Assembly (NCBI GenBank): GCA_965659685.1
Contig: CBFHXB010000004.1
Coordinates: 14,917-78,916, forward strand
Direction: 5' to 3'
DNA: 64,000 bases
Origin: Candidatus Poseidoniaceae archaeon
GTDB lineage: Archaea; Thermoplasmatota; Poseidoniia; Poseidoniales; Poseidoniaceae
Part shown: positions 11,526 through 44,084 of the stretch, one piece after another
Position numbering within the stretch: position 1 is the first letter of the stretch
How the letters are laid out: every line of letters begins with the position of its first letter
Translations under genes and position numbers: made by a program
Notes under the pieces: generated by a model
Told to the model about the DNA's origin: nothing
Database searches by the model: none
Seen by the model: the letters and a program-made list of their open reading frames with translations, nothing else

Positions 11526-13700
11526 ATGGCGAAGCGAGGGGCGGCCGCGCTGCTCGTCCTCCTCATGTGCAGTCTCCCATTTGCGAGCGCATCGGCCGAC
11601 ACAACCCTCGTCACCCATGACGAGGAACGCTTGGTGGTCCAAGGGAACGCAGGTGCAACATGGTCAACGACGCTCAACCTCGACGCAACCCAACGAGGTC
11701 TCTTCGTGGTTGCATGCGGAAGTTGCGAGGCAAGCGTCGAGGATGCGGCAGGAACCGCCCTCGCCTCCGGCGTAGGTGGCTTGGACCTCACCCACCGACC
11801 CGAAGTAGCCGGCACTTTGACCCTGCAGGTCACCTTCGTCGTGGAGGAAAGCGCCACCGTGCTCCTCCTCGCATCGACGATGACGGAGGTCCCCAACCGC
11901 CCCGCTCCGGGCGAGGACGTCATCTCGACCGTCCTTGCCCCGTCCGGAGCGGGGGATGCATGGTGGACGGGAACCGACCACGTCCGTCTGAACGGTGGAT
12001 GGCAAGGCGCAGCGACGGCGGTGGTGAACGTCTCAGCGGATTCAACCGCATACGTCCTTGCAGAAACCGAAGAACCCGCATGGGTGGACGTGCTGGTGCA
12101 GCACGCCTCGAGCGAAATTGACCTCCGACTCATCCTCCAAAACAACACTGTGGAAGTCACGCACGCAAGTTTGACGCTGACGCAAGACGACCTTCCGTTC
12201 AGCCATCGGATGTTCTTGGACGCAGATCAGCGGGCGATGATGCTCATCGAAGGTACGGCCCCAAACACAGGAGCCGCCGTGGCCATGGCGTCCCACCCGA
12301 CTTCGGGGGCCATGGATGAAGTGGCGGGAGAGGATTCCAAGCGGGTCGTGGGACACGGTGGTCAAATCAAGGTCTACGACGTCAACGACACTGATGCCTT
12401 GCGGGTCACACCGGCCTTAGGAACAGAATTTCGAGCCGAGCATCTGGTTCAGGGCACATGGGTGGCAACGTCGAACGCAACCTCCACCCAACCGAGGACG
12501 GTGTGGGCCCTTCCAGGCGCCGTTGCGCTTCGGTTGACGTGCATCAGCCCGACCTGCTCCGCGGACGTGGCGCTCACCGAAGCCTCTGACCTCCGCAGCG
12601 GCGAGGACGCGCAAGGTTACGTGGACCTGAGCGATGAACTCCTTCGCCAAGGAGGAAGTGCAGGGTACCTTCCGTTGAATGGAAGCGCAAACGGCCACCT
12701 CGTGCGCGCAACGCTCGACGTGGCCGACGTCTTCCCGTTCCAGATCGATGCTTGGGAAGATTCCATCCATTTGGTCAAGGTCACCGTATGGACCTCTGAA
12801 CCGGTCATGCTGGAACTGATTCCAATCGATCCAATCACTGGCACCGTCGACGAGGACGAGCGCAAGCACGAGGTGGTCAGCGGCCAAGGCGAGAGCCTCA
12901 GTGCGCAATTCGGCCGGGGTGCGCACCTCGTTCGCATCAGTTTGGTCAACCCGGATGAGGTGCTGAACGGCACGTGGGGCAGCGATTTGGCCACGCTCAA
13001 TTACACCTTGGAAATGGCCCATGGCGTGGTGGATGAAGGCGATGAACCGTGGTTTGAACCGGACGAGGCTTCTCAAATTTGGGGCGCAAGGGTCCGTTGG
13101 ATCCTCGGGTTCTGTTTCTTGATCCCTGTGGCCTATCTTGCACGCATGCAGCGCAGGCGAACCTTGCTTGCAAACACCTTGCGCGCACAGCGTGAGCGCC
13201 TTCGACAGATCGTCGCTCGCCTTGACGAGGGCCGCCCAGTGGCTCAGGAACGACGGGACCTCCACCTCGCCCTCGATGCCGTGGCCACCTTGGATTTCGA
13301 AGACGCGTGCTTGAGTTGGGGGCAACCCGACCTGCAACATCGAACCGACGAACTTGCCTTTGCCGCCTGGCGTCTCGACCGACGCTTGGCACAGCACGGG
13401 GCGCATGTCGTGCTCGTTGGATTGGCTGCTGGCCCACGAACTTGGGAAGCGACGGCCTTGCGCTTCGACGCTCCCATCGGTGCGGCGTGTGAGGTCAAAG
13501 CGGTGGAACCGCGCTTCATGCATCACGGGGAGGACGTCTTCCTGGACACCATTCGAGCGGGGACGGTCGTGTTCCTGACCGTAGAACTGGACGGAGCGAA
13601 CACCTTGGTGGACCTCGAAGTCAACGGCCTTGTGGACGCGAAACCAAGGGCAGCACGCGCAAGTGCACCGCTCGAACTCGTCTCCACCGAAGAGGCGTGA
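11526..13700 (+). CDS. Single-pass membrane protein: large extracellular beta-rich region, TM, ~190-aa cytoplasmic domain
   Basis: Signal peptide MAKRGAAALLVLLMCSLPFASASA; TM WILGFCFLIPVAYL; charged helical segment then beta-rich C-terminal domain. Confidence 0.7.
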   Translation: MAKRGAAALLVLLMCSLPFASASADTTLVTHDEERLVVQGNAGATWSTTLNLDATQRGLFVVACGSCEASVEDAAGTALASGVGGLDLTHRPEVAGTLTLQVTFVVEESATVLLLASTMTEVPNRPAPGEDVISTVLAPSGAGDAWWTGTDHVRLNGGWQGAATAVVNVSADSTAYVLAETEEPAWVDVLVQHASSEIDLRLILQNNTVEVTHASLTLTQDDLPFSHRMFLDADQRAMMLIEGTAPNTGAAVAMASHPTSGAMDEVAGEDSKRVVGHGGQIKVYDVNDTDALRVTPALGTEFRAEHLVQGTWVATSNATSTQPRTVWALPGAVALRLTCISPTCSADVALTEASDLRSGEDAQGYVDLSDELLRQGGSAGYLPLNGSANGHLVRATLDVADVFPFQIDAWEDSIHLVKVTVWTSEPVMLELIPIDPITGTVDEDERKHEVVSGQGESLSAQFGRGAHLVRISLVNPDEVLNGTWGSDLATLNYTLEMAHGVVDEGDEPWFEPDEASQIWGARVRWILGFCFLIPVAYLARMQRRRTLLANTLRAQRERLRQIVARLDEGRPVAQERRDLHLALDAVATLDFEDACLSWGQPDLQHRTDELAFAAWRLDRRLAQHGAHVVLVGLAAGPRTWEATALRFDAPIGAACEVKAVEPRFMHHGEDVFLDTIRAGTVVFLTVELDGANTLVDLEVNGLVDAKPRAARASAPLELVSTEEA

Positions 13701-35931: not shown

Positions 35932-38446
35932 CCGCGGCGTGGACCTGCCCCTGAACGTCCCGCATTCGGGACTTGGCGCCCAACTCCCGGAACACGGTCA
36001 AAGCGCGTTGGAGGTATTCCATGCGTCGCTGCTTGTCGGGCGTGACGCCACCGAGTTTCGAGAGGAGTTCACCGATTTGCATGCGAAGGTCGTTGGCTTC
36101 GGCGATGACCAGGGCTTGGCGGTACTGTTCGGTGGCCTCCTCCACACGACCACCGTCTTCGTGGACCTCACCGAGGAGAATGCTGATCTCGACCGTCGCG
36201 AGCACGTCCCCACCTTGCGTCAGGGCCTCCACAGCGCTGGAATAGTGGTGAAGCGCAAGTTCGGTGTCCTTCATCTTCGCATAGAACCGTCCGAGCACGG
36301 CTTGGGCACGAGCGTGAAGCATCGCTTCCTCGGTTTCGCTCGTGCTCTCGAAGGCCTTGATGGCGTGGTCACGTGCGCGGTCGACCTCACCGAGGTCGAG
36401 GAAGGCTCGGGCCAAACTGATCCGCGAACCGACCAATTCGTCGGGAGACGCGCTGGTGGCGAGGATGGTTTCCACTTGGGCGTAGGCTTCCAGAGCGGCT
36501 TTCTGGTCGTTCTTTCGCCTCAGGAGGTAGCCCATGTTGTTGTACGTGCGGGTGGCCCCTTGCTCGTCTTCCAAGGCAATGAATCCCTTCAGGGCTTCCC
36601 GGTGCAATTCCAAGGCCTCGTCAGGTTGGCCTTGCTTGAGGCACACGTCGGCCAGGGTCGAACGAACTTCAGAGGCGGTTCGGTGGTCGTCTGCGCCCAT
36701 AGCGCCGTCAAGCGCCAAGGTCAGGGATGCTTGGGCTTCGTCCAACCGTCCCTGCAGGGCGAGCACTTCTCCTGAGAGTTGGTGCAACCGTGCCCCTTCG
36801 GACCCTTCCAAATCCTCGAAGGGAACCCGTTCCAGCAGGGTCAAGACCTCCATGTGTCCCTTGCTGACCAAGCCACGACCCTCGTGGGTCAACAGATGAA
36901 CGGCATCCTCGAGTTCCTCGCATTCAAGCAGGTGATGGATGTACTCGACCAATTGCTCCGCCGTCGCGTGATGCTCGGAATACCAGGCAATGCAGCGACG
37001 GTGGAGGTCCTGCCGCTGTTGTTGGTCCAGACTGCGCAGGAGGAATTCTCGGATCAAATCGTGCACGTCGAAGGTCTTGCTGTCCGCTTGACGGGCCAAG
37101 CCTTGGTCCACCAAGGAATCCAACACGTCGAGGTCCAGATCCTGCTGGCCAAGAGCGTCGATCGAAACGGACTCACGGAACACGGAGAGGGCCGCCAAGA
37201 CACGCTTCTCTTCCGCGGTCAGCTTTGAGAAAATCTCCACAGAGACGTAGGTCTCCAGGGATTCGTGGTAAGCACCGGCCGAGGCTCCGCGGTTGATGAG
37301 TTCCAACACGAGCGGGTGACCGCGGGACAAACCGTGGATGTGAAGCCACTGCTCGTCCGAGAGGTCCTCGAAACTGCTCAGGAGTTGCCGCGTGGCCTCC
37401 GGGTCGAGTCCGTCGAGCGGCAAGACGAAACTGGAAATCCTTCCTTCGGCGTCCTTCGCGGCAACAACGGGTTTGAACGAACGCGAAAAGAGCACCAAAC
37501 CAACGAGGTCCTCGGCTTCGATGAGGTTCAACGCAACCGCCTGAATGGTTTGGTGAAGGACAGCATCCGACACCTTGTGGTAGTCGTCGAGGATGAGCAG
37601 CGAAGGTGTACCGGAAAGCGCATCGACGATCAAACGGGCGGCGTCGGAGGGTTGGGGGACCGGTGTCGCCGCTAGGTAGTCCGAGAAGGAGGCGTCACCC
37701 ATGTTCGCAAGCCATTCAGCGATCGACTCCAAGCACGCACGGGCGCTTTCCCAATCCTGACAACGGTGGTAGAGCATGTTCCGACGGTGCGTGAACCGCT
37801 CAACCAACTTCCCCGCCACGGTCGTCTTGCCAATGCCGGCGATGCCAGGCACAAGCAAGGTGGTGGCCCGAGCGTCAAGCAGGCTGACGATGTGATCGAG
37901 TTCACGTTCGCGACCGTAGAATCGCCTGACGCGGGGAAGGTCCGCAAAGGAGGTCACCAGTTGCTTCTCGACGTGCTTCGAGAGGTCACGGTCGACCAAA
38001 TCAGGAGAAAGGCCACGGACGTCCAAGACACCGTTGTCGTCCATGTACCGAATGACGTCCACGGGTCGCATGGGGAAGGGGAGAACCTCGTGCACCGATC
38101 CAAGGTCGCTTCGCTTCGAAGAACCGTCTTCAAGCAAACAATGCACAGGGTGGCTTCGCAACCGCTGCCACGTTTCTTCCGCACCGGTGATGCCGGTGTC
38201 GGTCAAGAAGTACGCCTTGCGTTTTCTGGCAACACCGGAAACGTGGGCCTGCCGTTCAACCAGCAAACCGGAATCCTTCAACGAGGCAATGGCCCGGGGC
38301 ACGTTCGATCGTGCGATGGCCACGGCGTTGGCGATTCCCATTTGCGACAGGGCGAACGGGACTTCAACGCTCGACTTGTAGTCGACGTAGTCGCGGAGGT
38401 GAAGCAGGATGCGTTCCTGCACACCCGGTTTTGGATTGCCGCTCAA
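35918..38446 (-). CDS. Winged-helix + STAND NTPase + TPR repeat protein
   Basis: N-terminal wHTH (LSQMGIANAVAIARSNVPRAIASL...YFLTDTG); Walker A GIAGIGKT; Walker B LLILDDYH; GHPLVLEL; VHDLIREF; about 7-8 TPR-like repeats; TTG start with GAGGT RBS overlapping the upstream stop. Confidence 0.85.
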   Translation of the reverse strand: MSGNPKPGVQERILLHLRDYVDYKSSVEVPFALSQMGIANAVAIARSNVPRAIASLKDSGLLVERQAHVSGVARKRKAYFLTDTGITGAEETWQRLRSHPVHCLLEDGSSKRSDLGSVHEVLPFPMRPVDVIRYMDDNGVLDVRGLSPDLVDRDLSKHVEKQLVTSFADLPRVRRFYGRERELDHIVSLLDARATTLLVPGIAGIGKTTVAGKLVERFTHRRNMLYHRCQDWESARACLESIAEWLANMGDASFSDYLAATPVPQPSDAARLIVDALSGTPSLLILDDYHKVSDAVLHQTIQAVALNLIEAEDLVGLVLFSRSFKPVVAAKDAEGRISSFVLPLDGLDPEATRQLLSSFEDLSDEQWLHIHGLSRGHPLVLELINRGASAGAYHESLETYVSVEIFSKLTAEEKRVLAALSVFRESVSIDALGQQDLDLDVLDSLVDQGLARQADSKTFDVHDLIREFLLRSLDQQQRQDLHRRCIAWYSEHHATAEQLVEYIHHLLECEELEDAVHLLTHEGRGLVSKGHMEVLTLLERVPFEDLEGSEGARLHQLSGEVLALQGRLDEAQASLTLALDGAMGADDHRTASEVRSTLADVCLKQGQPDEALELHREALKGFIALEDEQGATRTYNNMGYLLRRKNDQKAALEAYAQVETILATSASPDELVGSRISLARAFLDLGEVDRARDHAIKAFESTSETEEAMLHARAQAVLGRFYAKMKDTELALHHYSSAVEALTQGGDVLATVEISILLGEVHEDGGRVEEATEQYRQALVIAEANDLRMQIGELLSKLGGVTPDKQRRMEYLQRALTVFRELGAKSRMRDVQGQVHAAVMNR

Positions 38447-38455
38447 GTTCCAACC

Positions 38456-41400
38456 TCATTCAGTGGAAGGGACGTAATCGGGGTCTGGGACCCACTGGTT
38501 GGTTTCAGCGTCCCAGATCCATCCAGGGTGCTGTGAACTCGCAGCCGCAGCCGGCGAAGCAACCGCCGTCTGTTGGGCGGGGATCTCCGGAGCGGATTTC
38601 TTGGCCCAAGCGTAGGGATCTTCCTCCACCTGTGCTTCCGCTCCTTCGACCTCTTCCTCGAATTCTTCGTACTCGACAAAGAAGGTCAGAACCAGGGCTG
38701 CCAACACCACCACGACAAGCAAGGCGCCGACAATGACCCAAATCATGGAAAGGCCGCTCTCGGCCGCAGAGGCCGGCGTGAGGGTGTAGTCGCCACCGCT
38801 TCGGGCTTCTTGGCCGTTCATCTCGAAGTAAATGCCCGTTGCCTTGTCGCTGTTGAGCTGGTTCACGGTGATGTCCATCGCCCACGTACCGTCGGAAAGG
38901 ACGCGCGTGGTGTTCAGCCGCAGGTTACCCGATTCGGTCCTTGCTGACACGGTGGAGCCGGGAAGACCGGTGCCCGAGAAGGAGGCGGAAACGTCGGTGT
39001 CAAGGTACGCCTCGTTGCTGACCTTTTGCACGTCGAACTCGACGGCCCGGACCAGGAAGTTGACCCGGAAGGAATACGCCACGGAGCCGTACTCGTCTTG
39101 CGCTTCAAACATCACCTGCTCAAGGGACCACTCGCTGATTTCTGTCGTGGTCTGTGCCATGCCGTCCATCGGGTTGTAGGTCGCCACACCGCGGGCGTTG
39201 ATCGTGATGTATGCAGGGTAGTCGTCGTCTTCAAAGGTCGCTGGATCGTCAAACACGTCGTAGATCAGGAGCGTGGAATCCACGTCCAAGTCGCTGAAGA
39301 AGGCCGCCAAATCGATGCTTTGGCCAGAGCCACATCGGTCGATGCTGTTCGAGTATTGGTCGCAGAAAATCGTCAGCGTCTGAGGCCAGTCCAAGCCGTT
39401 GAACACCGGTGCGTTGTTCTCACGGTCAACCGGGTTGTCGATGCGGACACGACGGCGGACTTCTTCGGAGTAATCCTCGCCGTCGTAGGCTCGAACGATG
39501 ATTTCGTATTGTTGGTCGTGGATGTATTTCGAGGTGTCCCAGGTCACCTGCCATGCACCGTTGGACAGGAATTGGGTGACGATGAGTTCCTCGTCAGACA
39601 TCAGGATGCTGGAGGCGAGGTCCAACACTTGGACCTCAACACGCGTTACTTGACCGTCGTTGTCCAACGCACCGCCTTGGAGGTAGGAGGAATCGCTCGC
39701 ACGAAGGATGCCTCCGTCGATGACGAGGTCGCCTTCAGCAGTGTAAGCATCCACGGTCACGAAGGGTGGTGTGTTGTCGTTCTCAATGATGAGGGTACGT
39801 CGCTCGACGGTGCAACCGTCCGGCCAATCGATGCAGAAGTCGGAGTCGGCTGCCCAGACCTCGAAGGTGTATTCCCCACTGGGCAGGTCTTCGAAGTTCC
39901 ACTGGTATTCCCAAGCGGTCTGACCAGGCGTGTACAGGTGTGAGAAGTAGTCGTTGGGCCCGGTGATGTTGAACCAAATCTGTTGGATGTCTGAGCCCTG
40001 CACGCCCGAGTAAGGGTCGGAAGCCGTCCCTGTGAACAGCACCTTGCCGTTGCGGTGCGTCGAACCGTCGAGTGGCTCGTTGAGGATCAACGACGGAGCC
40101 ACAAGGTTGAGTTTGTACTTGCGTGTTTCTTGAGGCGAGGTGTCCAAACCGTCGAAGGCACGAACGCGGAAGGTCACGTCGCTTTCGCCTTCAGGGTGTC
40201 CGGACAGGTCCCATTCAAACGACCACGTCTTGAACGGATGGTTGTTCTTGGTGATCTCTCCGTTTGCCCCAGAGGTGTCCGTGGCCGAATACCACGACTG
40301 GCTGCCGGGTGGCTGGATCTCAACACGCTTGACGATGCCGAACTGCTTCTCGTAGGCGATTTGGTCGAGCGCATATTCACCGGGGCTACCGCTTCCCGCG
40401 ATGCCGTCCCAAGCCGCTCCAGTCAGGGTCACCGTGGTCGCAAAAGATGCTCCATCGAGTTGATCCACGACCACGCTTGGTCGAAGGTTGTCGAGGTTGA
40501 TGACGTCGTCCACGCCACCGGTCAAGGTAAACGAGAAGGTTTTCTCGCCCTTGCCGAACTTGTAGGCTTCCACGGTGTAGAAGGCCTGCTCACGTCCGTT
40601 GACGCAATCTTCGTCAGCCGTGTCGACCTTGGTGTCACCGTCGTTGTCGTAGCCGTCCGCGCAGGAGTTCTCATCGATGGATTCGACGGTTGGCGTTCCG
40701 GGGACGTCCACCGCGGTGTCCCCGACGATGTGGTTCCAGTTTCGGTCGATCAGGAAGTCACTGGGGAGGGAAACGAAATCGGTGAATCCGAACGCATCGG
40801 TTTCCAATTCGTACAACGGAAGACCGACCGAGTCACGGATGACCACCGTGGCGTCGGCGACGTTGGAACCTGCCGCCTTCACTTGGTAACGAACAAGTTC
40901 ACCTTGGCGCACTTGCGTGCCCCACTCGGAGTTTTGATTCTGAACGAAAATCTTCGACGTGTCGAAGTTTTGGAGGTCCGCGTAAGAGAAGACGGTGGAG
41001 TTGGTCACCAGCTCGATGGCGAGTGGCATGTCGCGTGGCGGCAATTCTGCCGAGACGGGAAGTTGCAGGCACTCGTCCGTTACGTAGGGGCACTCCGCGC
41101 CTTCCCAGGCGAGCATCACGGGATAACCGGAGGACACATCGGGAATGAACTCGGATTGCACCGTGATTCGGGATTCTGTGACGTTGTACACTTGGGTGGC
41201 GTTGGTCCACGTGTTGCCTGAGAAGTAACCAATGGAACCGTACTTGTTGCCGTAATTGTCGTCGAATTGGAAGATGCGGACGGCGAAGTCACCGGTCTCC
41301 ATCTCGTTGTCCTGAACGTTCACGATGCCACCGTTGACGCGGAGCGCATCGCCCATGTTGTTGGCCACACGGTTGTTTTCGATGGTCGCGCTGGCCATGA

Positions 41401-42802
41401 ACACGTGGATGGCAGGGCAAGCGAAGTCACCGCCGTACATCCAGTTCGAGTTGCAGGTGCCGGAGTTGTTCTCGATGATGTTGTTGGCGAAGTACATCCG
41501 GTTCGCACTTGGCGAGGGCACGCTCCAACCTTGGTCGCGGTAGTGGTATTCTCCGAGAACCACAGGCTCGCGGGCCGTGTCGTGAATCGTGTTGTTCTCC
41601 GCGATCACGTCAGAGGAGCCGTAAATCCAGAATCCATTGTACCCCTCGATCGGCCCGATGTCGTTGTTGTACGCTTCGACCACCGACGAGCGGATACCAA
41701 AGCCGGAACCGCTGGTGGCTCCGGAAATGGAGTTCCCTGTGGCGGAAACGCGGGCACCGTCGTACGCGGTGATGCCGGCACCTTCGCCGGTGGTGATGGT
41801 GTTGTCGTCGATGTAAAGCGTGTGCTCAATGTCACCGGTTTGCTTGAACGAGTTGGTGTCGATGGCGTTGCACAGGACGTCGACGGTGGAGTTGGTCAGC
41901 CAGCCCGAGGTGCCGCGCATGAAGACACCGTAGGCGTTGTCGCTGATGCTCAAGCGTTCCAAGCGGATGTAGGAATCCTCGGTGTAAATGACCGAGAATC
42001 CGCCGCCTTGGTTGCCGCACTGAGCTTCGGTGTCACCAGTAAAACTCGAGTCCAAAACACGCATGGTGGAAAGAATTCCGAGGCCGGCTCCGTACGCCTG
42101 GATGGATGCAGCCTTGTACGACTGTTCGTCGACGCCGAGGGAAAACTCGGAGTTGGTGATGGTCGGGGAAGCCGCGTTGAGGGCGATGACGTTGCTGGTG
42201 TTGATGTCCGAGAAGGACAGCCCGTTCGCGTCGAAGCTGGAGCCGTCGAAGATGAGTGCTCCATAGAGGTACTTCTGAGCGTTCACGGAATAAATCGGGA
42301 AGCCGTAGGCCTTTTCGAAGTGAACATAATTCAGGCTGGTGATCGCTTCGTCAATGGTGTTGCGGAAGATCACGCCACCACCGCAAGAAGCATCGGTGTT
42401 GTAGAGCGGAACTTGCGCATTGGGGCTGTAGCATCGCCCGGTGGCAGACGCGTTGGCAGGGTTGCCCCAGAGGAAGCGAACTGGGGAGCTTTGGCTTCCT
42501 TGGGTGGCGCCGCAGGAAGCATCACCAGCGCAGATGGCGCCCTTGACGTTCACGAACGTACCGGCAGGAACGTTGACCGTGGTTCCTGCGTTGATGATGA
42601 GCTTGGCACCTTCGGCCACCTCAACGTCGCCCGTCAGGGTATGGGTGCCCGACCAGGTTTCAGTACCAACGACGATGCCAGATTTCGTCTCGTTGTTGGC
42701 CGAGACGGTCGGGACGGTCACCATGCCGACCATGAGCGACATGAGAAGGAGGGTCACGAGGGAGATGCTGCTGAGGGGACGTGTCTTGGTCACGGTATCC
42801 AC
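38456..42802 (-). CDS. 1448-aa surface protein: right-handed parallel beta-helix (pectin-lyase/NosD-like) region, Ig-like domains, C-terminal TM and aromatic tail
   Basis: Signal peptide; repeated GIxx/NxIxxN beta-helix coils; CADGYDNDGDTKVDTADEDC motif; GxAxD-NDG-V-RVEV Ig-like repeats; TM; tail HPGWIWDAETNQWVPDPDY. Confidence 0.78.
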   Translation of the reverse strand: MDTVTKTRPLSSISLVTLLLMSLMVGMVTVPTVSANNETKSGIVVGTETWSGTHTLTGDVEVAEGAKLIINAGTTVNVPAGTFVNVKGAICAGDASCGATQGSQSSPVRFLWGNPANASATGRCYSPNAQVPLYNTDASCGGGVIFRNTIDEAITSLNYVHFEKAYGFPIYSVNAQKYLYGALIFDGSSFDANGLSFSDINTSNVIALNAASPTITNSEFSLGVDEQSYKAASIQAYGAGLGILSTMRVLDSSFTGDTEAQCGNQGGGFSVIYTEDSYIRLERLSISDNAYGVFMRGTSGWLTNSTVDVLCNAIDTNSFKQTGDIEHTLYIDDNTITTGEGAGITAYDGARVSATGNSISGATSGSGFGIRSSVVEAYNNDIGPIEGYNGFWIYGSSDVIAENNTIHDTAREPVVLGEYHYRDQGWSVPSPSANRMYFANNIIENNSGTCNSNWMYGGDFACPAIHVFMASATIENNRVANNMGDALRVNGGIVNVQDNEMETGDFAVRIFQFDDNYGNKYGSIGYFSGNTWTNATQVYNVTESRITVQSEFIPDVSSGYPVMLAWEGAECPYVTDECLQLPVSAELPPRDMPLAIELVTNSTVFSYADLQNFDTSKIFVQNQNSEWGTQVRQGELVRYQVKAAGSNVADATVVIRDSVGLPLYELETDAFGFTDFVSLPSDFLIDRNWNHIVGDTAVDVPGTPTVESIDENSCADGYDNDGDTKVDTADEDCVNGREQAFYTVEAYKFGKGEKTFSFTLTGGVDDVINLDNLRPSVVVDQLDGASFATTVTLTGAAWDGIAGSGSPGEYALDQIAYEKQFGIVKRVEIQPPGSQSWYSATDTSGANGEITKNNHPFKTWSFEWDLSGHPEGESDVTFRVRAFDGLDTSPQETRKYKLNLVAPSLILNEPLDGSTHRNGKVLFTGTASDPYSGVQGSDIQQIWFNITGPNDYFSHLYTPGQTAWEYQWNFEDLPSGEYTFEVWAADSDFCIDWPDGCTVERRTLIIENDNTPPFVTVDAYTAEGDLVIDGGILRASDSSYLQGGALDNDGQVTRVEVQVLDLASSILMSDEELIVTQFLSNGAWQVTWDTSKYIHDQQYEIIVRAYDGEDYSEEVRRRVRIDNPVDRENNAPVFNGLDWPQTLTIFCDQYSNSIDRCGSGQSIDLAAFFSDLDVDSTLLIYDVFDDPATFEDDDYPAYITINARGVATYNPMDGMAQTTTEISEWSLEQVMFEAQDEYGSVAYSFRVNFLVRAVEFDVQKVSNEAYLDTDVSASFSGTGLPGSTVSARTESGNLRLNTTRVLSDGTWAMDITVNQLNSDKATGIYFEMNGQEARSGGDYTLTPASAAESGLSMIWVIVGALLVVVVLAALVLTFFVEYEEFEEEVEGAEAQVEEDPYAWAKKSAPEIPAQQTAVASPAAAASSQHPGWIWDAETNQWVPDPDYVPSTE

Positions 42803-42826
42803 CGTATCTCCCGTACTTCGGACGAG

Positions 42827-42832
42827 ATATAA
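42827..42832 (-). promoter_or_regulatory. TATA box (TTATAT) of the beta-helix/STAND operon
   Basis: Near-consensus archaeal TATA, 24 nt upstream of GTG 42802 (leaderless spacing). Confidence 0.65.
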
Positions 42833-42835
42833 CGC

Positions 42836-42870
42836 TGTGGGCCGAATTGTGTGCCGGATTGTGTCGAAAT
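42836..42870. repeat. Three imperfect tandem 12-bp direct repeats immediately upstream of the TATA box
   Basis: TGTGGGCCGAAT (42836-47), TGTGTGCCGGAT (42848-59), TGTGTCGAAAT (42860-70). Confidence 0.7.
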
Positions 42871-42899
42871 GGCGCCCGTTGTATCAAACAAAAGGGCCA

Positions 42900-44084
42900 T
42901 CAAAACGCGGTCGAGCAGGTCGGATCGACGGCCTCAAACCACGCCATGGCGTCCAAACCACCGTACCCTGTTCGATCGTCATGAACGCCCCCCAAGGAAC
43001 TTCTCAGGGCTTCTTTCACATGCGTCACGCACCGGTCGTCTCCAACGCGCATGTCTGGATGAGCCTCCAAAATCATCGCCAAAGCGGACGTGACGAGGAC
43101 GGTTGAAACCGAAGTTCCACTGGATGAAAACCAAGCGTCATCAGCACCCGTTGAAATGACGTTGACGCCCGGAGCATGAACTTCTGGCTTCATGTTCGGA
43201 TCTTCACCAAGTCCACTTCCGCTGGAGGAATTGGTCCAAATTTCACCCGATTCGTTGGAGGCGGCCACAGAGATGACCCGAGGCAAGAAAGCAGGGGATG
43301 CCACACGCCCGTCGTCGTCAGGACCACCGTCGTTGCCGGCCGCAGCGACCACGAAGATGCCCGCATCCAGCGCCCGCCGGACGGACGAAACGACCACGTC
43401 GCGTTGACTTTCGACCTGTTCCCCCCCCAAGGAGAGGGAAATGAGGTCGGCCTCGAAGCCCGTTCTGCACCAATCGATGGCCTCGGCACCGACGGCGTCG
43501 TCGCCCGTGTTTTCACCCTCGTCGTCGCCAGAGAGGGCTGCTGCAACCCCCAAGGTCACGCCTGGCGCGGCCCCTTTCTGATGGCCGTCGGCCATCATCA
43601 GCCCCACCATCATCGTGCCGTGGGCGGTTGCTCCCCGATCGAGAGGAGCGGTTGAACCTCCGATGAAATCACGAAACACCACGTCGATGTCGGACAACGC
43701 AGAGTGGCTGGTGTCCACCCCTGTGTCCACCACGCAGACCCGAACACCCGAGCCATCGTAGCCTTCGTCTGCGAGATCTCGAAGGCCGGTGCTTTCGAAG
43801 GCCCATTCAGAATCGTCAAGCGGGATTTCAACGAACAGCCACCCCTGAGAGGCGATCAAACCTGCAAGGATAACAAGCACCACCAATCCGAGCGAAGAAC
43901 GGGCGACGCGCCGGCGTCGATGCGGTACTGCGCTGACCAGCGTTGGAGCCCAGCCCATGACCTCAGAGCGCCATTCAGCTTCGTGCTCCACCGCGGATGG
44001 GTCCACGGCGGTCAGCATACGCGGTTCTCCCGGCTCCGGGAGGAACTCCATGCCTTCCAGCGCCGACGGCCTCACGGCTGACAT
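42900..44084 (-). CDS. Membrane-anchored S8 (subtilisin-like) serine peptidase
   Basis: Triad motifs VVDTG, HGT, GTS; oxyanion AAGNDG; ISLSLG; N-terminal TM; GGAGG RBS. Confidence 0.9.
   Translation of the reverse strand: MSAVRPSALEGMEFLPEPGEPRMLTAVDPSAVEHEAEWRSEVMGWAPTLVSAVPHRRRRVARSSLGLVVLVILAGLIASQGWLFVEIPLDDSEWAFESTGLRDLADEGYDGSGVRVCVVDTGVDTSHSALSDIDVVFRDFIGGSTAPLDRGATAHGTMMVGLMMADGHQKGAAPGVTLGVAAALSGDDEGENTGDDAVGAEAIDWCRTGFEADLISLSLGGEQVESQRDVVVSSVRRALDAGIFVVAAAGNDGGPDDDGRVASPAFLPRVISVAASNESGEIWTNSSSGSGLGEDPNMKPEVHAPGVNVISTGADDAWFSSSGTSVSTVLVTSALAMILEAHPDMRVGDDRCVTHVKEALRSSLGGVHDDRTGYGGLDAMAWFEAVDPTCSTAF

Follow-up and report, generated by a model that had tools for sequence, protein, structure and literature searches.

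TGATAY direct repeats as a candidate upstream activating site for giant surface-protein genes and a STAND regulator gene in Poseidoniales

The 97-nt spacer that separates a subtilase gene from a beta-helix surface-protein gene in a Marine Group II archaeon is read here, with slightly better than even confidence, as an activator-dependent promoter whose upstream activating site consists of direct TGATAY hexamers, would be bound by a co-transcribed STAND protein and would belong to a small surface-protein regulon. The parts of this reading differ in strength. We have little doubt that the TGATAY array is a true regulatory element that has been conserved, and it probably activates rather than represses. 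That the STAND protein encoded downstream is the factor binding the array is a proposal we rate a little below even.

Gene order and core promoter

The window analyzed, the whole 64,000-nt stretch of DNA, comes from a Candidatus Poseidoniaceae archaeon (Marine Group II), and all genes around the spacer lie on the minus strand. The host assembly comprises 1.89 Mb in 35 contigs, and the G+C content of the genus is 61%. The spacer interrupts a conserved four-gene surface module (Table 1). Its first gene encodes a giant protein in which the STT3/AglB domain is followed by long CarboxypepD_reg-like repeats; next come the S8 subtilase, the beta-helix protein (N-terminal signal sequence; 1448 aa in its longest ORF) and the STAND protein, the gene of which starts 9 nt beyond the beta-helix stop codon in the window and after a gap of 9–11 nt throughout the genus. 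This gene order is kept in all three Poseidoniales families sampled, and the beta-helix gene is syntenic in all Poseidoniales sampled.

Table 1. Features of the beta-helix promoter and of the genes around it (positions in the window).
Feature	Position	Strand	Basis
STT3/AglB-domain protein, 3197 aa	44119-53712	-	STT3/AglB oligosaccharyltransferase domain, residues ~404-664
S8 subtilase gene	42900..44084	-	Pfam Peptidase_S8, E 7.6e-33
Distal box TGATAC	42881..42886 (42886-42881)	-	Matches the order-wide motif perfectly; 54 nt upstream of the TATA start
Proximal box CGACAC, degenerate	42861..42866 (42866-42861)	-	Ungapped alignment with relatives' TGACAC, CGATAC, TGATAC
Three 12-bp units of the sequence-only reading	42836..42870	+	Repeat matching and shuffles
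Promoter-proximal block GGCxCAAxxxGGCCCACAGCG	42833..42855	-	TATA-anchored alignments; conserved in the genus
TATA box TTATAT	42827..42832	-	TTATAT or TTATAC invariant, same place in orthologues
GGTG ribosome-binding site (42803-42800) and likely true start GTG (42793-42791)	42791..42803	-	Orthologues
Beta-helix/Ig-like surface-protein gene	38456..42802	-	Pfam Beta_helix, E 1.5e-11; Big_7
wHTH-STAND(NOD)-TPR gene, 842 aa	35918..38446	-	Pfam AAA_16, TPR_12

Read on the coding strand, the spacer runs from the subtilase stop codon through CCCTTTTGTT, TGATAC, AACGGGCGCCATTT, CGACAC and AATCCGGCACACAATTCGGCCCACAGCG to TTATAT, which is followed by 23 nt, a GGTG overlapping a first GTG, a further 6 nt and a second GTG. 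The subtilase stop TGA (42902-42900) is followed by a T-rich tract, CCCTTTTGTTT, which may serve as a terminator. The conserved block next to the TATA box corresponds to the BRE region plus about 15 nt, and its counterpart at the level of the family, ..GGCGCAGTR, also adjoins the TATA box. A distance of 24 nt between TATA box and start codon had been given from the sequence alone; it is right for the longest ORF, which begins at GTG 42802, and the orthologues favor GTG 42793. Because the orthologues have ATG at this second position, the GGTG ribosome-binding site lies 6 nt upstream of it and one clade (that of L022) has a stop codon in the frame of the upstream start codon, GTG 42793 is probably the true start and the longest-ORF start wrong. 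The spacer was also considered as an RNA element, a reading that we rejected: it has no Rfam match at E values up to 1, and its fold z-score is -1.0.

Conserved TGATAY boxes and the 12-bp repeats

Footprinting of 88 unique orthologous spacers from the Poseidoniales brings out direct TGATAY hexamers, and not 12-bp repeats, as the conserved element upstream of the core promoter. The boxes are spaced by 19 (at times 20) nt within a pair and mostly by 23 nt between pairs (19-23-19). A promoter carries two to six of them, usually as two pairs 42 nt apart, and the spacer sequence around them cannot be aligned between genera. In an unbiased 6-mer count over the 88 spacers, TGATAC ranks first, ahead of TTATAT, occurring in 73 regions against 6.1 expected and a shuffle maximum of 13; of 99 orthologous spacers, 83 (among them 73 distinct sequences) have a [TC]GA[TC]A[CT] hexamer that starts 32–34 nt before the TATA box. 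As orthologous promoters are related by descent, these counts are not independent and overstate the independence of the evidence. The boxes lie in an A/T-rich context (wwTGATAYtw), and not even the G+C-rich genus of the window departs from G at position 2 and C/T at position 6. The array shows the hallmarks of an archaeal upstream activating site of the EarA/Ptr2 type: short boxes in several copies, placed at a constant position before BRE/TATA and recurring from one orthologous promoter to the next.

The window itself carries a weak version of the site: one of its boxes is perfect, the other has two mismatches. The position of the distal box is filled in all 11 promoters of the genus. The proximal CGACAC, with a spacing of 20 nt to the distal box and a distance of 34 nt to the downstream TTATAT, falls within the third of the 12-bp repeats discussed below. 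In five relatives (L022–L024, L033 and L038) the subtilase stop codon TGA doubles as the beginning of a TGATAT box, which makes coding sequence and regulatory site overlap.

The array is missing from most beta-helix promoters of the small-genome genera (third family), namely in L041, L042, L044, L045, L047, L048, L049 and L051, yet the STAND gene still lies downstream; autoregulation through the array is therefore not universal. Inverted GTATC..GATAC arrangements are seen in some of these promoters; L047 has a palindrome GTATC-N4-GATAC, and L049 has GTATCATGATAC. The gap between the beta-helix and STAND genes is about 65 nt in the small-genome genera and includes a conserved ACATTCTTGA(A/G)TG, which is possibly part of a separate STAND promoter. 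With the array absent and the gap before the STAND gene longer, the wiring of the module varies within the order.

The sequence-only reading had singled out another element of the same spacer, three phased 12-bp direct repeats abutting the TATA box, and had taken it for the operator of the co-transcribed STAND protein. The sequence and the position of these repeats were given correctly (Table 1). In the frame proposed, TGTGGGCCGAAT (42836-42847) and TGTGTGCCGGAT (42848-42859) match at 10/12 positions, whereas the third unit, TGTGTCGAAAT (42860-42870), is an 11-nt, weak copy that fits only with a 1-nt gap. The best frame is found on the minus strand, where ACACAATCCGGC (42864-42853) and ACACAATTCGGC (42852-42841) match at 11/12. 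When the 97-nt spacer was subjected to 5000 dinucleotide shuffles, an equal two-copy tandem (periods 9–14) appeared in 0.04% of them (p about 4e-4) and an equal three-phase score in 1.3%; two copies are thus non-random, and to speak of three is generous. The repeats do adjoin the TATA box, as they stop 3 nt upstream of TTATAT (42832-42827), and the phased array is, as had been supposed, unique: genome-wide scanning of the 1.89-Mb assembly found neither a phased array nor TGTG arrays beyond the locus. Within the window, TGTGNGCCGRAT has just two sites, both in the array, and single matches occur at chance level. The scan that had been proposed for delimiting a regulon, with TGTGxGCCGRAT over the 1.89 Mb, returned one extra single match and defines none.

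Comparison with the orthologues does not bear out an operator role for the 12-bp repeats, for which lack of conservation had been named beforehand as part of the refuting outcome. The period-12 score is 11/12 in the window and, in the same register, in L016; it falls to 9/12 in L018 and L021 and to 8/12 in L014, and no such periodicity is seen in L017, L019, L020, L022, L023 and L024 of this genus or in any other genus or family. The similarity is thereby confined to one subclade of the genus, where it is patchy. A metagenome scan with the 15-nt string CCCACAGCGTTATAT gave chance matches, the real locus being absent among the at least 120 loci listed. The repeat is seen only in the subclade where mutation has turned the proximal box into TGACAC or CGACAC. 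The first two of the units as originally drawn occupy otherwise variable spacer together with the BRE-proximal block. Compared with L016, the window has changed in corresponding places of the two copies (AAAA to AATC/AATT). Such concerted change was set aside as evidence of function because it is within chance expectation: about 0.8 parallel pairs are expected and 2 are seen. The 12-bp repeats are best seen as a young, subclade-specific periodicity between the proximal box and the TATA box, not as the conserved operator, and as having arisen where the decayed proximal box came to resemble the neighboring conserved 12-mer; their origin is probably local slippage or conversion.

The eye-catching repeat led to the right promoter, though the functional element is probably another. 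What stands is the general idea of a regulated archaeal promoter with direct-repeat sites upstream of BRE/TATA and with the co-transcribed STAND protein as best candidate binder; the repeat that is conserved is TGATAY and not the 12-bp unit. Nor are the conserved sites about one helical turn apart, as had been suggested, since the TGATAY spacing of 19–20 nt amounts to about two turns and the boxes lie further upstream.

Further target promoters and the candidate regulator

Over 41 genomes, the pattern TGATAY-N13/14-TGATAY was found 91 times and its reversed control 26 times. On the complete Marine Group II chromosome CM001443.1 (2.06 Mb) it occurs three times, at two promoters only: two hits fall in the beta-helix promoter and the third upstream of the gene of a giant Ca-binding surface protein, with equivalent sites in other genomes. 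The latter protein is signal-anchored and DxDxDG-rich, has 2687 aa in CM001443 and ends in a C-terminal DUF4129; its gene is unlinked to the module. Boxes precede it at 24 loci in at least 23 genomes, covering all three families, with a spacing of 19 nt in 21/24 loci and of 20 nt in 3/24, and a TATA-like box (TTGATATA, TTCAAATA or TTGATAAG) follows about 26 nt after the proximal box. The layout TGATAY-N13-TGATAY-N26-TATA is therefore common to both promoters. In the window's genus the giant Ca-binding promoter carries perfect TGATAC pairs. The window genome itself encodes, on contig C20 (40012-41472), the C-terminal 488 aa of the protein, 71% identical to that of CM001443; its promoter could not be read because the contig ends inside the gene.

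A third target was found in two Poseidoniaceae genera (L159 and L160; G013:C153 and G016:C112), where the gene of a secreted, Cys-rich protein (at least 477 aa) is preceded by four TGATAY boxes. We propose a small surface-protein regulon because the same layout precedes the giant Ca-binding gene and this third secreted-protein gene. The window genome has a 31%-identical homologue of the third target (C5, ~11685-13073), upstream of which no boxes were found, and a relaxed scan of that genome for TGAYAY pairs returned only the beta-helix promoter in a promoter context. Neither upstream of the STT3-giant gene, in the window or in CM001443, nor in the promoters of the other large surface genes of the window were TGATAY boxes found. 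In the sister order the pair motif barely exceeds the control (31 vs 16), and arrays are lacking. A recurrent TGATATyTGrCCrTCATCrTGATAy, probably a conserved coding segment, inflates the pair counts of the sister-order genomes G043, G047, G051, G058, G065 and G067.

By its place in the operon and its domain make-up, the co-transcribed wHTH-STAND-TPR protein is the best candidate for binding the array. The STAND gene is the sole transcription-factor-like gene found adjoining any array promoter; no regulator genes were seen among the ORFs checked around the giant Ca-binding gene of CM001443. The protein is single-copy in all 41 relatives (47–95% identity). Every Poseidoniales genome sampled has an orthologue and the sister-order genomes sampled have none; as protein and motif are both universal in the order, their co-occurrence carries no information within it. 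Two contigs with this archaeal locus bear bacterial names: L082 (CAXRAI010000019.1; STAND 94% identical) is deposited as "Salinimicrobium sp." and L140 (NZEQ01000036.1; 65% identical) as "Verrucomicrobiales bacterium." Both are probably mis-binned or mislabelled MAG records.

The wHTH domain spans residues ~1–100 (38147-38446, minus strand). Pfam gives only weak HTH_Crp_2 and PadR hits for it, and a PDB sequence search with the N-terminal 170 residues returned no match. The AF2 model of these 170 residues (pLDDT 85.9, pTM 0.82) shows a wHTH followed by a small alpha/beta module, and Foldseek relates it with probability 1.0 to ZitR, MepR, PadR and the pNOB8 centromere-binding wHTH. On the strength of this model we are confident that the predicted domain is MarR/PadR-like and matches DNA-bound regulators. 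In the recognition helix and wing (VPFALSQMGIANAV.IARSNVPRAI...ERQAHV.GV.RKRKAYFLT) there is little or no variation across the order, whereas the protein as a whole drops to about 47–50% identity. The NTPase domain (Pfam AAA_16, E 3e-10) has the Walker A motif GIAGIGKT and the Walker B motif LLILDD, and the NOD aligns with that of PH0952 (PDB 6MFV; phmmer E 2.1e-22, residues 169–486 against 8–305). The C-terminal sensor matches TPR_12 (E 7e-27) and, below threshold, TPR_MalT (E 4e-11; 43.1 bits against a cut-off of 45 bits). The domain features of a PH0952-like protein, namely a homologous NOD with Walker A and B motifs, an N-terminal wHTH and C-terminal TPRs, are thus present.

Membership in three other groups was considered and rejected. 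Against the MalT family (NCBIfam NF003420) the protein scores 47.5 bits, the cut-off being 537; it has no GerE/LuxR hit, and its HTH is N-terminal. Against SARP/AfsR it scores 38.5 bits, compared with 1430, and only the TPR region aligns; Trans_reg_C and BTAD hits are lacking, and the fold is MarR/PadR-like. An anti-phage (Avs-like) STAND does not fit either: the only PADLOC hit was a generic TPR one (E 6e-6), and the gene occurs throughout the order as a syntenic single copy, without a patchy, island-like distribution.

Alternative readings, proposed mechanism and related systems

The most serious competitor of the proposed reading accepts TGATAY as a genuine activator site and assigns it to another, unlinked transcription factor, the STAND protein having a different target or a non-transcriptional role. 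Only adjacency and parallel conservation tie the STAND protein to the motif, small-genome lineages keep its gene behind a promoter without the array, and archaeal genomes encode many small wHTH proteins, paralogous wHTH proteins being present here as well. Against this, the motif is limited to two or three promoters per genome, as is typical of a dedicated local regulator, the sole regulator gene found beside any array promoter is that of the STAND protein, and the DNA-reading elements of this protein are invariant; we therefore consider an unlinked factor rather unlikely, while giving it real weight. That the boxes are instead TATA-like decoys or alternative TBP sites, forming multiple weak promoters, we judge very improbable. 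Their A/T-rich context and the fact that TTGATATA itself serves as TATA-like box of the giant Ca-binding gene in several lineages would agree with it; the strict retention of G2 and C/T6 in a genus of such high G+C content would not, and neither the fixed 19-23-19 spacing nor the fixed distance to a single downstream TTATAT would be expected of decoys.

Two other alternatives start from the 12-bp repeats. Were these repeats themselves, as TGTGxGCCGRAT units about one helical turn apart, the operator of the STAND protein, one would understand why the two-copy tandem exceeds chance and has no counterpart elsewhere in the genome, why L016 has it at 11/12 in the same register, and why the units share a ..ACACA 3′ half with TGATACA; the changes at equivalent positions of both copies could hint at a concerted constraint. 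These changes fit chance, however, and the repeat decays to 8–9/12 in three close relatives and is absent from six genomes of the same genus and from all other genera. The motif is also missing at the giant Ca-binding promoter, where the same genus keeps perfect TGATAC pairs, and the TATA-proximal unit coincides with the BRE, a place where a bound protein would more likely be a repressor. We regard this explanation as improbable. Only slightly better placed, and still doubtful, is the idea that the periodicity is a second, lineage-specific element, either the site of another factor or an extended BRE, which compensates for the decayed proximal box. It would account for the restriction of the repeat to the subclade with a TGACAC or CGACAC proximal box, and the TATA-adjoining block is strongly conserved in the genus; but repeat strength differs among very close relatives (11, 9, 9 and 8 of 12), there is no other copy in the genome, and no protein is implicated.

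Under the preferred reading, in which the STAND protein activates from the TGATAY array, the TPR sensor would switch on the PH0952-type STAND protein, ADP would be exchanged for ATP, and multimerization would follow. The N-terminal MarR/PadR-like wHTH domains would dock head-to-tail on the TGATAY repeats, and the docked multimer would help to recruit TBP/TFB, activating the surface-protein genes and the operon of the STAND protein itself (positive autoregulation). STAND proteins are known to multimerize on binding inducer and ATP (PMC6468293), and binding upstream of BRE/TATA, with recruitment of TBP or TFB, is typical of archaeal activators (PMC5512572). The distance of 26–28 nt from the proximal box to the TATA box exceeds that of many characterized archaeal activator sites.

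The nearest known relative in architecture is PH0952 of Pyrococcus horikoshii, in which wHTH effector, NOD NTPase, arm and TPR sensor follow in the same order. Its authors present PH0952 as a predicted transcription factor in which the DNA-binding effector is N-terminal and TPRs form the sensor, and their paper gives no DNA target or regulon (PMC6468293). The Poseidoniales protein, in contrast, belongs to a different archaeal order, comes with a candidate operator and candidate target genes, and has a wHTH predicted from its modeled fold to be MarR/PadR-like. MalT of E. coli and AfsR/SARP of Streptomyces are ligand- and ATP-gated multimerizing NTPases with a repeat sensor, and they activate promoters carrying several asymmetric direct-repeat boxes; the TGATAY array is also a direct repeat, and the STAND protein has weak HMM similarity to MalT and AfsR. 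GutR of B. subtilis is a STAND transcription activator of the same kind. MalT differs in that its HTH is C-terminal and of LuxR type, the one described here being N-terminal. SARPs combine an OmpR-type wHTH with BTAD and bind the bacterial −35 region, whereas the present sites, spaced by about 19 nt, precede an archaeal TATA box.

Among archaeal regulators, EarA (Methanococcus maripaludis fla) and Ptr2 (Methanocaldococcus jannaschii) likewise use several short boxes upstream of BRE/TATA. EarA has four 6-bp sites, and repeated copies of its 6-bp box are needed for activation of a cell-surface structure operon (PMC5512572). The EarA sites are located directly upstream of the BRE; here, 26–28 nt separate the proximal box from the TATA box, and the motif, the 19-23-19 spacing and the candidate regulator (an 842-aa STAND protein) all differ from those of EarA and Ptr2.

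Marine Group II, which has no cultured member, counts among the most abundant archaea of the surface ocean; papers on its promoters or regulators were not found in the literature searched. A precisely spaced motif, limited to two or three promoters and kept in three families, together with an invariant STAND wHTH, makes up a concrete regulator-operator hypothesis. In its widest form, which we put forward more tentatively than the binding of the array by the STAND protein, a PH0952-type STAND protein would be the ligand-gated master activator of an order-wide giant-surface-protein regulon acting through TGATAY-N13-TGATAY sites placed 26–28 nt before the TATA box, and would positively regulate its own synthesis in most Poseidoniaceae. 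If true, this would be, to our knowledge, the first operator and regulon for this class of archaeal STAND transcription factor. The arrangement suggests signal-dependent, and not constitutive, expression of the giant surface proteins, whose role is probably to mediate contact with particles or polymers, and it would then open a way to learn how cell-surface proteins that serve attachment or act on glycans are switched in the most abundant planktonic archaea.
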